This document shows, piece by piece, positions 43,720 to 45,447 of a stretch of 64,000 nucleotides of DNA. Every line of letters begins with the position of its first letter. The stretch's first letter is position 1. Made by a program: the position numbers and the translations under genes. The DNA lies in the NCBI GenBank assembly GCA_030059665.1, contig JANVYR010000002.1:448001-512000 (forward strand). Reading direction: 5' to 3'. The notes under the pieces are model-generated. The model saw nothing but the letters and a program-made list of their open reading frames with translations. It was not told the DNA's origin and ran no database searches. This stretch comes from Candidatus Calditenuis fumarioli. GTDB lineage: Archaea > Thermoproteota > Nitrososphaeria_A > Caldarchaeales > Calditenuaceae.

Positions 43720-43845
43720 TGGCGGGCCCGCCGGGATTCGAACCCGGGACCTCCGGGTCTCCTCCGACCCGAGTCGTTAAAAGCCCGTCGTTGAATATAT
43801 TGGGGTATCACCCCAATATACTCTTCCTGGCTGAGCTACGGGCCC
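43720..43845 (-). tRNA. tRNA-Lys(TTT) with two introns: 30 nt at 24/25 (43791-43820) and 19 nt at 37/38 (43759-43777); CCA encoded
   Basis: Removing both introns gives GGGCCCGTAGCTCAGCCAGGAAGAGCGACGGGCTTTTAACCCGGAGGTCCCGGGTTCGAATCCCGGCGGGCCCGCCA. Both introns fold as bulge-helix-bulge; TTTAAATA lies 23-30 bp upstream. Confidence 0.93.
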
Positions 43846-44048
43846 TCACGATTACTGCTGTTTCATGCTACTATTTAAAACTAGTAATTAAGGGGAAGTT
43901 TTACGTCAAACTGAGAATATTAGGGAAATTGCTAAGAGAAGACGGCATGTTGTTACATAGATGGGAGAGATAAATAAATGTTGACTTTGAGAAGAGGAGA
44001 AGGAAATGAAGGGAGGGGTTAACTAGCGGACGGTCATTAGTATTGCTT

Positions 44049-44160
44049 AGGGGAGCCGAATGAGGACCTCAGGCACTGGGCTTTTAACTGCTTCATCCCC
44101 CCTAACGGTAGGTCTGCACTCGTCGCTCTTCTGCCGAGACCCCATCCGGCTCTTTCCCCC
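44049..44160 (-). ncRNA. Dual-guide hairpin RNA (bridge-RNA/tigRNA-like loop) matching tRNA-Lys
   Basis: Roughly 25-bp interrupted outer stem, symmetric internal loop GCA-GAAGAGCGACG-AGTGC / GCA-GTTAAAAGCCC-AGTGC, inner CCTA-ccgt-TAGG hairpin; starts 4 nt after the nuclease stop codon. Confidence 0.8.
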
Positions 44161-44164
44161 ATTT

Positions 44165-44923
44165 TCACTCCTTCACCGCTTTCAGTGCTTTCTTTATGGT
44201 TTTCAAAACCTCCCGCACCTCTTTTCTCTTGATCTTCCGTCTTCTCTTTACGCTGACGGTCAACGAATTTACGGCTTCCCTCAGGGTTTTATTCAGCCAG
44301 CAATAAGACATCACCTTCCTCAGCCCTAGGCTGAAGTCGACAAATAATAGCAGTTGGACCAAGGCCACTCTTCCGTAGAGGCATCTCTTTGAGTTGATTC
44401 CCAATCTCTCCGATATCTGATGGATCGGTAGGAAGCTTCTCGCCAGCGAGTCTATCTCCCTGGCCAGTTTATCTTTCCGCCTTCTGAGCGATCTGATCAG
44501 CTGGTTATAATGCACCTTAGTCTCCTCATCACCTGCTTGACGCGACAGTTGCTTCACTAGTTTCAGTTGCCCTTTCGTCATCCTATATTCGTGTAGAAGC
44601 ATCCGTATCTTCAGCTCGTTTTCCGTTAACTCCCTGAAGAATTGCTGGGGTATTCTCATTAACGCCTTAACGTCATTCTCATCGCTCTTAGTTTCTCTGT
44701 ACTTCTTAATGACGTCCGTCCTCTTCAGGTAGAATATTCTGATGCCTCTTGCCAATAGCTTCTCGAACTCCTGATATCTGGTCAGCTGGATAGCGTCTAC
44801 ATAGAGTTCGTCTCCGGCTTGAGCTGGTATGTCGCTAAGCTCCTTGAACCTCATAACGACACCGTCTGCTACGACCACGTGATCCTTCCTCCAGTGGACG
44901 TCAGCGTAGAACTTTTTGGACAT
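44165..44923 (-). CDS. IS110/TasR-like protein: RuvC (D8, D43, D81, D84), coiled coil, truncated Tnp/Nop-like domain
   Basis: FYADV, LYVDA and KSDENDVKAL match the IS110 DEDD domain; LRKVMSYCWL-NKTLREAV matches SYxGL...GNxxLR but lacks the intervening serine loop. ATG 44923 follows a purine-rich SD-like tract; the track extension to 45106 is likely non-coding. Confidence 0.8.
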   Translation of the reverse strand: MSKKFYADVHWRKDHVVVADGVVMRFKELSDIPAQAGDELYVDAIQLTRYQEFEKLLARGIRIFYLKRTDVIKKYRETKSDENDVKALMRIPQQFFRELTENELKIRMLLHEYRMTKGQLKLVKQLSRQAGDEETKVHYNQLIRSLRRRKDKLAREIDSLARSFLPIHQISERLGINSKRCLYGRVALVQLLLFVDFSLGLRKVMSYCWLNKTLREAVNSLTVSVKRRRKIKRKEVREVLKTIKKALKAVKE

Positions 44924-45411
44924 TTTCTTATCCCATCCCCTTTTCGCAGATTCCCCGATGGGGGCGTCACGCCCGAAGATGCCAACGGAGGGCGCGCCCT
45001 CTTCACCCGGGCTGGGGACCGCGACTGCCTCTGGGTTAACTCCGGCGTCCTGAACAATTTCACCACTCATTCTATCACCCAATGACAAGTCCTCAAGACC
45101 ATCCATCTCGCTAAGTAGTTTTCAGTGAAAGCTACTCAAACTTTGCCTTTCAGCAACCCTTTCACTGGCTTTCGGTGGCTTTCTGAGAGGAATGCAGGGG
45201 CTAGTTCTATCGCGTTTATGCCCCAACACCATACATGGAATGTTGAGCATTTGAGCATCTTATGGTCTCACAGTGGATTGATCTCGAGGGAGGGAGTTCT
45301 GAAGGCGATGATGGATCAAGCTGATGAAATGCAGTCGAGCAGTCGATAGGAGTGAAGCAGGTATAACGAGGGATGAAGATTTCTGAAGATTTCTTTCATG
45401 TTTCATATTCT

Positions 45412-45447
45412 AAAGCCGGCCGCTCTTCCTGGCTGAGCTACGGGCCC
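45412..45447 (-). pseudogene. 5' fragment of tRNA-Lys (intron-less), ending in the anticodon loop
   Basis: GGGCCCGTAGCTCAGCCAGGAAGAGCGGCCGGCTTT: first 27 nt identical to the spliced tRNA, then 2 substitutions; TTTAAT about 25-29 bp upstream in host-like sequence. Confidence 0.85.

Follow-up and report, generated by a model that had tools for sequence, protein, structure and literature searches.

A putative RNA-guided mobile element in the tRNA-Lys(UUU) gene of “Candidatus Calditenuis fumarioli”

The sole tRNA-Lys(UUU) gene found in the 91%-complete genome of “Ca. Calditenuis fumarioli” (GCA_030059665.1) has been rebuilt around ~1.6 kb of inserted DNA, which encodes a protein with RuvC-like and Nop-like folds and a predicted guide RNA whose two spacers together spell the uninterrupted form of the same gene. 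We consider it probable, by a modest measure, that this is a selfish element that cuts intact tRNA-Lys alleles under RNA guidance and is copied into them by homologous repair, an intron serving both as its right terminus and as its self-immunity.

Anatomy of the locus and its empty counterpart

The locus occupies positions 43720-45447 of the window (the whole 64,000-nt stretch of contig JANVYR010000002.1 that was analyzed) and is read on the minus strand. There, the putative host promoter is followed by an orphan 5' piece of tRNA-Lys(UUU), ~1.6 kb of DNA with a lower GC content (0.40 to 0.56, versus ~0.62 for the genome), a new TATA box, and a complete tRNA-Lys. Inspection of the sequence located every part that an initial annotation had described:

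45471..45477, minus strand: host TATA-like box CTTTAAT, ~25 to 31 nt upstream of the orphan tRNA piece; putative promoter
45412..45447, minus strand: orphan 5' piece of tRNA-Lys(UUU), 36 nt (linear nt 1-36), intron-less, ending in the anticodon loop
43791..45411, minus strand: inserted DNA, ~1.62 kb, delimited by comparison with the empty site of genome G022, by composition, and by two paralogous copies in the same genome (at tRNA-Asn and tRNA-Thr)
44165..45106, minus strand: ORF of 313 aa, RuvC-like plus Nop-like fold, the sole ORF in the element
start ATG at 44923, minus strand: conserved 252-aa core of the ORF, from comparison with the family
44050..44160, minus strand: predicted dual-guide RNA scaffold, from the consensus fold of 12 scaffolds
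44122..44130, minus strand: spacer A, AAGAGCGAC, tRNA-sense, equal to tRNA linear nt 21-29
44079..44087, minus strand: spacer B, TTAAAAGCC, antisense to tRNA linear nt 31-39
about 43871..43880, minus strand: element-borne TATA box TTTTAAATA, predicted promoter of the rebuilt tRNA gene
43720..43845, minus strand: complete tRNA-Lys (Rfam tRNA score, 40.6 bits)
43821..43845, minus strand: element-borne copy of tRNA exon 1, standard nt 1-24, from the sequence and the fold of the spliced product
43791..43820, minus strand: 30-nt hairpin insert at 24/25, after GAAGAG, read as a bulge-helix-bulge intron
43777..43790, minus strand: exon 2, standard nt 25-38, with no difference from the native gene in relatives
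43758..43776, minus strand: canonical 37/38 intron, 19 nt, native, present also in the empty allele of G022
43720..43757, minus strand: exon 3 with encoded CCA, from the sequence and the Rfam match

The inserted DNA takes in everything from the left end through the final base of the 24/25 intron, and its boundaries are uncertain by a few nucleotides because bases are shared at the junctions. At its right end the element carries its own TATA box, the copy of tRNA nt 1-24, and the 30-nt insert, which directly adjoins host nt 25. Because a new 5' part is supplied in this way, the only tRNA-Lys(UUU) gene is rebuilt, and the 19-bp target is gone as DNA.

Removal of the 30-nt and 19-nt inserts yields a canonical 77-nt tRNA-Lys(UUU) cloverleaf. 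The reading of the 30-nt insert as an intron gains from its predicted fold, a bulge-helix-bulge shape in which 3 of the 4 central positions pair, the 3-nt bulges read AG|T and AA|C, and the inner helix measures 11 bp. Homologous inserts occur in the Asn and Thr copies, that of the Asn copy having all 4 central pairs, and a relaxed bulge-helix-bulge motif fits each of the 8 introns tested (3 to 4 of 4 central pairs). Since no second tRNA-Lys(UUU) gene was found in the genome and the spliced product would be canonical, the 30-nt insert is presumably removed from the transcript.

As a check, the initial annotation proposed looking for an empty allele at the syntenic locus in relatives, and this is what the element-free congener G022 has: one tRNA-Lys with the contiguous 21-mer specified by the guide and no 24/25 intron, beside the same upstream gene (synteny is on the upstream side). 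At the element junction the corresponding 21-mer differs at 5 positions, as had been pointed out. The tRNA-Lys of G022 already carries the 37/38 intron, so this intron of the element locus is native, and an A/T-rich box lies at the same distance from the tRNA-Lys of G022 as the host TATA-like box does at the element locus. Assembly artifact is ruled out, both junctions being bridged by contigs from independent hot-spring metagenome studies. No repeat of the tRNA 3' end was found in the 10.7 kb downstream. In contigs from four sequencing runs, neither an empty allele of the same strain nor a sign of splicing was seen; the apparent joints there all have different bases between their flanks and resemble tRNAs from other organisms.

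Within the anticodon stem, next to the target center, 2 positions of the orphan piece depart from the native sequence. Its GCCGG stem half had been reported to pair poorly with the 3' half of the rebuilt gene. The native stem is ACGGG/CCCGG, as in the rebuilt gene, and it is the orphan that deviates (by 2 nt). The deviant stretch equals the tRNA-Lys(CUU) sequence, and gene conversion or two point changes are possible origins. Copying from a tRNA-Lys(UUU) allele with a GCCGG stem was rejected, as none of the 76 genomes of the class has such an allele.

Protein, guide RNA, and recurrence of the design

An AF2 model of a paralogue (pLDDT 96) combines RuvC and Nop folds as in TIGR-TasR and the IS110 bridge recombinases, with Foldseek and VIA matches to TasR, IS621, and ISCro4; the Foldseek E value is about 4e-6. 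The best structural match is TasR (9mty_A; Z 14.8, 240 residues aligned), followed by the TasH Nop domain (Z 13.4, rmsd 2.8) and by ISCro4 and IS621 (Z 12.6 to 12.9), to which the fold aligns over residues 1-257. The family profile also matches TasH (E 3.5e-5) and, with these Z scores, places the protein among Nop-domain proteins fused to a RuvC nuclease, the TasR type. Fold alignment and four conserved Asp residues likewise reveal the N-terminal RuvC-like DEDD domain of the IS110 family; D6, D18, D41, and D82, together with K77, are invariant or nearly so (58 to 59 of 59 family members).

The C-terminal Tnp domain of the IS110 family carries a catalytic serine, S241 in IS621. Conservation offers no counterpart: among the 59 family members there is no invariant Ser or Tyr in the C-terminal domain, and the relevant loop is shorter than in TasH and IS110. 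By hhalign, the family profile showed no match to a canonical IS110 fragment of a related genome (probability 3%), and the serine question is therefore judged on conservation, not on residue-level alignment; a nucleophile at a non-equivalent position is conceivable. Pfam gave no usable match for the ORF, including PF01548, PF02371, and the integrase families; PF01548 matches 4 of 30 family members weakly (best E about 0.01), and a search of the whole genome for PF02371 found no match. As modeled, the ~250-aa core is a member of the IS110/TIGR-Tas superfamily: its RuvC-like acidic site is intact, and it has a Nop-like RNA-binding domain, but the IS110 serine has no conserved equivalent. The ORF of the tRNA-Lys copy lacks 8 loop residues that its paralogues retain, so this copy may be inactive.

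The predicted guide RNA lies 3' of the ORF. In its consensus shape, drawn from 12 scaffolds, an inner hairpin is joined through a symmetric internal loop to a long outer stem, and the alignment of these scaffolds has hypervariable spacer columns and conserved flanks. By complementarity, the two 9-nt spacers would pair with opposite strands of one DNA target, AAGAGCGAC-G-GGCTTTTAA, a contiguous 9+1+9 site in native tRNA genes: this site covers standard nt 20-38 of the native intron-less tRNA-Lys(UUU) gene, where spacer A would read the antisense and spacer B the sense strand. The spacer register, and hence the exact nick prediction, is assigned by complementarity. Each element has one guide unit rather than the tandem array of TasR-type systems. 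A single internal loop carries both spacers, in place of the two-loop bridge RNA of IS110, and no second (donor-binding) loop was identified in the consensus fold or in a non-exhaustive analysis of the 5' leader.

The claim that the intact target is missing from the element's own genome was upheld: the 19-mer has no match there at up to 2 mismatches, and neither has a reversed control. In relatives the 19-mer is found exactly, as a single copy in 9 related genomes (including 2 congeners and 6 of a sister genus) and as two copies in one more, a seventh of the sister genus; exact matches in relatives, with none in the own genome and none for the control, rule out a chance correspondence between guide and target. 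Other CCCCAATAT sites in the genome were dismissed as chance matches within genes. A box C/D sRNA guiding tRNA methylation was also rejected, spacer A being tRNA-sense and CUGA/UGAUGA boxes not being conserved across scaffolds.

Nine further loci share the design, making ten that represent seven tRNA identities. In all ten, the guide is followed by an A/T-rich TATA-like box and then by a tRNA with a 25- to 30-nt hairpin insert, which splits the spacer-A target 5|4; the spacing of the A/T-rich box is unchanged in the other elements, four of which have TTTAAAT. The spacers change with tRNA identity across the ten loci, and this covariation of both spacers with the neighboring tRNA, together with the TasR/IS110 fold, bears out the RNA-guided design first proposed from the tRNA-Lys locus. 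For the Asn and Thr copies of the same genome, the spacers match targets that are intact only in element-free congeners. At locus L060 the host orphan matches spacer A at 9 of 9 positions, and the new half has a different D arm.

Homing and competing explanations

We propose that the ribonucleoprotein would cut intact alleles in the staggered manner of TasR, nicking the bottom strand at 24|25 and the top strand near 33|34, and that the element would then be copied in by homologous repair (homing), the two tRNA halves acting as arms. Left behind as the orphan are the putative host promoter and roughly the first 35 nt of the tRNA, and the 30-nt intron would double as the right terminus of the element and as its self-immunity device. 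The nick made by TasR lies behind the fifth base of the spacer (Faure et al. 2025, PMC12045711); under that rule the bottom-strand nick would fall exactly at 24|25, and by the same analogy the predicted nick coincides with the 24/25 junction in the 10 loci. Several points count against homing. The modeled fold resembles the IS110 recombinases almost as closely as it does TasR, the tRNA-Lys copy may be inactive, and the 2-nt deviation of the orphan next to the target center is not predicted by a clean insertion into the native gene. Homing alone does not account for the colonization of new tRNA genes, and the bases common to both junctions (7 nt in the Asn and Thr copies) might just as well represent a core for recombination.

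Those shared bases are part of the case for an RNA-guided recombinase of the IS110 bridge type, in which an excised circle with a target-like RE-LE junction would be joined to the tRNA gene through an exchange of strands about the central base and the intron would prevent re-targeting of the right junction. The inner 6 to 7 bp around the center are common to both junctions in the Asn, Thr, and L060 copies, the fold match to IS621 and ISCro4 extends over the whole length, and a few family members show the weak PF01548 signal. The Thr copy, moreover, lies at the end of a 12-kb island, much like an integrase module, and for the C. subterraneum element a clean insertion with flanks >98.5% identical was described (Sugahara et al. 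2012, PMC3293823). Such a recombinase is nevertheless rather unlikely in our view, given a protein family with no conserved Ser or Tyr at the place of the IS110 nucleophile, a genome with no PF02371 match, and an RNA in which one dual-spacer loop but no donor-binding loop was found. Nor are the element termini conserved: left ends differ between elements, and the left boundary ranges over linear nt 31-36.

The guide and nuclease might instead be an addiction or exclusion device that kills or repairs cells after loss of the element, or blocks rivals for the same site, insertion being the work of something else. Its target is the empty site, as for TnpB guides, TIGR-Tas systems are regarded as defense systems, and protection against further invasion has been suggested as a role of the intron (Sugahara et al. 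2012, PMC3293823). The minimal copies of 1.3 to 1.6 kb, however, have no other coding content able to insert them, and many copies with different spacers point to active spread, which makes this explanation improbable. Least credible, and already disfavored, is a conventional integrative element of the pNOB8 or SSV type with protein-only att recognition, the spacer matches being leftovers of an attP-like tRNA copy. A direct repeat of a tRNA portion at each border and the placement of a recombinase next to a tRNA were the basis of the view of Sugahara et al. (PMC3293823), but the sole ORF is a RuvC-plus-Nop protein with no tyrosine-recombinase fold or integrase Pfam match, and sense and antisense spacers, both tRNA dependent in 10 loci, sit in a conserved RNA scaffold.

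Relation to known elements and distribution

The closest precedent is the insertion element at tRNA-Thr(GGU) of Caldiarchaeum subterraneum, for which intron gain via a mobile element was described and the intron suggested as protection (Sugahara et al. 2012, PLoS One, PMC3293823). It likewise has an orphan 5' piece, a ~1.9-kb insertion, a rebuilt tRNA with a new 24/25 intron, and a known empty allele, whereas the present element hits tRNA-Lys(UUU) in another genus. Its 270-aa ORF “b” was taken for a pNOB8-like recombinase, and no guide RNA was known (PMC3293823). We find that ORF “b” (P0005) is 43% identical to the tRNA-Lys element protein (E 5e-51) and that the same dual-spacer RNA is present in the C. 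subterraneum locus (L005). With its ORF “b” homologue flanked by a tRNA 5' fragment and a tRNA that has a 24/25 intron, the present element is a member of that “a/b” family. What is new relative to the 2012 study is the RNA guidance and the broken-target logic; the architecture and intron gain through a mobile element were already published. The interpretation in the initial annotation has accordingly fared unevenly: RNA-guided design, empty allele, and bulge-helix-bulge shape stand, the orphan stem had to be reread, and the intron-gain route was not new.

With TIGR-TasR (PDB 9mty) the element shares RuvC plus Nop, two ~9-nt spacers reading opposite DNA strands, and spacers flanked by C-box-like (GCA) and D-box-like (UG) motifs, and stem-loop guide units occur in the TIGR-TasR family. 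Unlike TIGR-TasR, it has a single guide unit and no array, lies within a mobile element, and is aimed at its own empty site; sequence similarity between the proteins is at the profile level only. IS110/IS1111 elements (IS621 and ISCro4; PDB 8WT6 and 9T56) are similar in their DEDD-like RuvC, coiled coil, and Nop-like domain, in an RNA that adjoins the gene (3', as in IS1111), in guides that spell insertion-site halves, and in being mobile and multicopy. The present element differs from them in lacking a conserved catalytic Ser, a donor loop, and a PF01548 or PF02371 match at threshold, in that each copy has its own spacers, and in rebuilding the gene that it enters.

TnpB/IscB-assisted homing of IS200/IS605 elements and IStrons also employs a transposon-borne RNA-guided nuclease with a guide that corresponds to the empty site, and IStrons self-splice from host RNA, but protein fold and guide are unrelated to those described here. 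In contrast to IStrons, only a 30-nt terminal piece would be spliced, by the host tRNA endonuclease, and the element donates a promoter and a half-gene. SSV1 and pNOB8 similarly insert into a tRNA gene that is restored by an element-borne partial tRNA copy, but they rely on tyrosine integrases and identical att cores, replace the 3' part in most cases, and introduce no intron.

The origin of noncanonical introns in archaeal tRNA genes is still called open (2026 preprint, 10.64898/2026.10.13.758758), and the sole population-level case of intron arrival, that of 2012, had no enzyme mechanism; the present locus, its paralogues, and the empty allele link that case to the Nop-domain superfamily (IS110, TIGR-Tas, and box C/D). 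They also suggest a testable rule, namely, that the intron lies at the guide-predicted nick and splits the target of the guide. A wider proposal, which we put forward tentatively and with somewhat less than even confidence, is that a serine-less relative of IS110 and TasR serves archaeal elements in tRNA genes as a homing nuclease under RNA guidance. Each element would donate a 5' half to its host tRNA and end on the right in a splice-competent intron at the nick site that gives immunity and seeds related 24/25 introns in different tRNAs. If true, the homing-nuclease reading would explain mechanistically the “transposition” of tRNA introns in archaea, for which an explanation has long been lacking. 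The compact ~250-aa protein with a single dual-spacer RNA, putatively programmable, stands between transposon recombinase and nuclease and is of evolutionary interest and possible use as a tool.

The family is limited so far to Caldarchaeales-type archaea. Of the 76 genomes in the class, 32 carry it, at up to 30 or more copies, and none of the six congeners does. For another scaffold type, a quick test of spacers against their own flanks was positive in part, with matches on both sides at L045 and on one side at L051 and L073.

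Layout of the locus and the rebuilt tRNA-Lys gene

The minus-strand arrangement claimed by the initial annotation, namely, an orphan tRNA 5' piece, an inserted element, a new TATA box, and a full tRNA-Lys, was confirmed from the sequence.

Features of the element locus, in minus-strand order
45482-45480, minus: stop codon of the zinc-ribbon gene, first in order, upstream of the element locus
45477-45471, minus: TATA-like CTTTAAT, after the zinc-ribbon stop codon
45447-45412, minus: orphan tRNA 5' piece, 36 nt, ending in the anticodon loop (from sequence)
After the orphan piece, minus: inserted DNA, ~1.62 kb, GC 0.40-0.56 (from composition)
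44160-44050, minus: RNA-like scaffold, beginning four bases past the ORF stop codon
44130-44122, minus: spacer A, AAGAGCGAC, sense of the tRNA
44087-44079, minus: spacer B, TTAAAAGCC, antisense to the tRNA
43880-43872, minus: TTTTAAATA, TATA box of the rebuilt gene (from sequence)
43845-43720, minus: complete tRNA gene (Rfam tRNA, 40.6 bits)
43820-43791, minus: 30-nt insert after GAAGAG, a near-perfect hairpin within the complete tRNA gene
43776-43758, minus: 19-nt insert at the canonical 37/38 site within the complete tRNA gene

Genome GC is ~0.62, compared to 0.40 to 0.56 in the inserted DNA. The complete tRNA was missed by ARAGORN without special settings, and excision of both inserts in silico gives a textbook 77-nt tRNA-Lys(UUU) with CCA encoded. 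No second tRNA-Lys(UUU) gene was found in the genome (1.57 Mb, 91% complete). Contigs of independent hot-spring metagenome studies bridge both junctions, and the arrangement is therefore real. The host tRNA promoter before the orphan piece (45412-45447) points into the element and, hypothetically, could drive the nuclease gene and guide RNA.

The element-encoded protein and its predicted guide RNA

A Pfam search gave no match for the sole ORF (45106-44165, minus). Two paralogous copies in the same genome, the Asn and Thr copies (named after the tRNA hit), have protein cores 74% and 87% identical to each other's, and the conserved core starts at the residue equivalent to M62 of the window ORF. 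The family is small: clustering at 50% identity leaves 88 representatives among the 1.8 billion proteins of public data, and the closest named member is an uncharacterised Caldiarchaeum subterraneum protein. Several lines of evidence place the protein in a compact branch of its own within the RuvC+Nop RNA-guided superfamily, outside IS110 in the Pfam sense. The AlphaFold model of an intact paralogue (pLDDT 96) matched TIGR-TasR (Z 14.8, 240 residues), the TasH Nop domain (Z 13.4, rmsd 2.8), the IS110-family bridge recombinases ISCro4 and IS621 (Z 12.6-12.9, whole length), and archaeal Nop5 (Z 7.9), and the family profile matched TasH at the sequence level (E 3.5e-5). Of 59 distinct members, 58-59 keep each of D6, D18, D41, D82, and K77, while the C-terminal domain, site of the IS110 nucleophile, has no invariant Ser or Tyr in this set. 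Canonical IS110 (PF02371) was not found in this genome, and across the class just 2 of 76 genomes have it.

The window copy lacks eight loop residues (GNYYPNDG-type, ORF residues ~255-262, window 44165-44330), including a semi-conserved Tyr, that are kept in the Asn and Thr paralogues and most family members, and it may therefore be decaying. Members of the family occur in 32 of the 76 genomes, in which copy number reaches 30 or more. Across family loci L007-L104 there are at least three RNA scaffold types, each with two hypervariable ~9-nt segments; many copies do not adjoin tRNA genes, and the spacers diversify fast. A GC-rich leader of ~230 nt lies 5' of the core ORF (window 44924-45250) and is conserved in the Thr copy and in L004 (G000:C2:56477-56718, same genome), a fourth locus where the leader precedes a different ORF; it is missing from the minimal Asn copy. 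This leader may be what Sugahara et al. called repeated region "a."

Aligned with eleven relatives, the scaffold folds into a long outer stem, a 3-bp clamp, a symmetric internal loop, and an inner hairpin. Its flanks are conserved and compensatory changes occur at a few pairs; the two 9-nt loop segments, the spacers, are hypervariable. Together, the spacers specify AAGAGCGAC-G-GGCTTTTAA, equivalent to linear nt 21-39 of tRNA-Lys(UUU), in a 9+1+9 register that was checked on sequences. Spacer B resembles the anticodon stem-loop in all members of this scaffold subfamily.

Target sites in relatives and at other tRNA genes

None of the six other genomes in the genus gave a match to the family profile. 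One of these, G022, has the uninvaded allele that the initial annotation postulated: a zinc-ribbon homologue (77% identical DNA) followed by a single tRNA-Lys(UUU) with the contiguous 21-mer intact and a canonical 37/38 intron. A 24/25 intron predating the element was not seen, the G022 gene being without this insert; its anticodon stem, ACGGG/CCCGG, is common to the rebuilt gene. The 19-mer was searched with up to two mismatches across the family of genomes. The absence of an intact guide target, noted for the two tRNA copies, extends to this whole genome (0 matches at ≤2 mismatches), and exact matches were found once in each of two congeners and in seven sister-genus genomes (one with two copies), with near-exact matches in three more congeners and none for the reversed-sequence control. 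The 19-mers specified by the Asn and Thr copies are likewise absent here and intact in element-free congeners.

Two bases beside the centre set the orphan piece apart from the native sequence (ACGGG to GCCGG). The GCCGG stem had been ascribed to mutation or a different allele; the deviation stands, but none of the 76 genomes has a Lys(UUU) allele with this stem. The piece is identical to tRNA-Lys(CUU) over the deviant stretch. Gene conversion by this paralogue is one possible origin, and another is selection to keep the left junction from matching the guides at 9/9 and 7/9 positions.

The order of guide, A/T-rich TATA-like box, and tRNA with a D-arm insert recurs at ten loci in five genomes: Lys (two), Asn, Thr (two), Arg-GCG, Arg-CCU, and Met, which are the eight dissected loci, and Leu and Tyr. 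A 25- to 30-nt hairpin insert divides the spacer A target past the fifth base in all eight. These introns form three or four of four possible central-helix pairs (8/8 tested; ~15% of cases would reach 3/4 by chance). Both of their splice sites have 3-nt bulges, and the inner helices measure 4 to 11 bp. Orphan pieces are visible at Asn, at Thr (12 kb away), at L060, and at L069, and spacer A matches them at 8-9 of 9 positions; at L060 the D arm of the donated half is quite different. Because spacer A matches the orphan while the donated half can differ, these comparisons show a guide aimed at the host's original gene and a new half that is foreign.

A 12.1-kb stretch (G000:C1:745799-757916) bounded by the orphan tRNA-Thr 5' piece has the Thr copy at its right end, and the same module is thus able to carry cargo. 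Elsewhere in this genome, tRNA-Arg(TCG) (G000:C2:429497-429603) has 15 to 16 extra nt in the D-stem region, at 22/23 or 23/24; the upstream DNA is ordinary GC-rich host sequence, and no element is present. This insert could be an older orphaned intron or of unrelated origin.

Homing, strand exchange, and the position of the intron

We favour RNA-guided cutting of intact alleles, after which an occupied copy would serve as the template for homologous repair. Through blocks alike among tRNA genes, the element could occasionally be copied ectopically into a new tRNA after a few spacer-base changes, which would explain both the homologous introns of the Lys, Asn, and Thr genes and the foreign D arms of donated halves. 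In the main competing model, IS110-like strand exchange takes place around the central base. This model is compatible with the fold, with the 6 to 7 bases common to both junctions, and with the 12-kb Thr island, but the serine is missing, there is a single guide loop, and left ends are unconserved, all of which argue against it. In both models an intron-less rebuilt gene would recreate the target, and some target-breaking device is therefore logically required; this need is the best argument for the intron's inferred role in immunity. Comparative sequence evidence gives good support to an RNA-guided design in which the target is broken.

Intron position is consistent with homing. TasR nicks each strand past the fifth spacer base, generating 3' overhangs (PMC12045711). 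Applied to the 9-nt complementarity register, this rule predicts a bottom-strand nick exactly between standard nt 24 and 25 and a top-strand nick between linear nt 34 and 35, a one-base register shift being a one-base nick shift. In every locus, 24/25 is the junction of the intron's last base with host DNA, and orphan pieces end at linear nt 31-36. With the intron at the predicted bottom nick and orphan ends near the top nick, heterology of the occupied allele would start at the predicted break ends, suggesting homing-element geometry and potentially explaining the ragged left boundary and the element ends without conserved termini.

A homologous element was described at tRNA-Thr(GGU) of C. 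subterraneum by Sugahara et al. (2012, PMC3293823). There, an orphan piece, a 1,868-bp insertion containing ORF "b," and a new 24/25 intron were seen, and the population also had an empty allele. Those authors proposed intron gain via mobile-element integration, also suggested that the intron may protect the element, and read ORF "b" as a pNOB8-like recombinase. The consulted papers on bridge RNAs, TIGR-Tas, and the IS110-Nop5 link make no mention of these elements, and a literature search joining Caldiarchaeum with RNA guidance found nothing.

Relative to G022, ~10.7 kb (window 33025-43720) separates tRNA-Lys from the syntenic downstream gene, which is radical-SAM-like. A tRNA-end repeat was not found in this stretch, which has partly lower GC and includes a 1440-aa DUF4011/AAA_11/AAA_12/MTES_1575 helicase-nuclease (39219-43541), and it may be a second island on the 3' side of tRNA-Lys.
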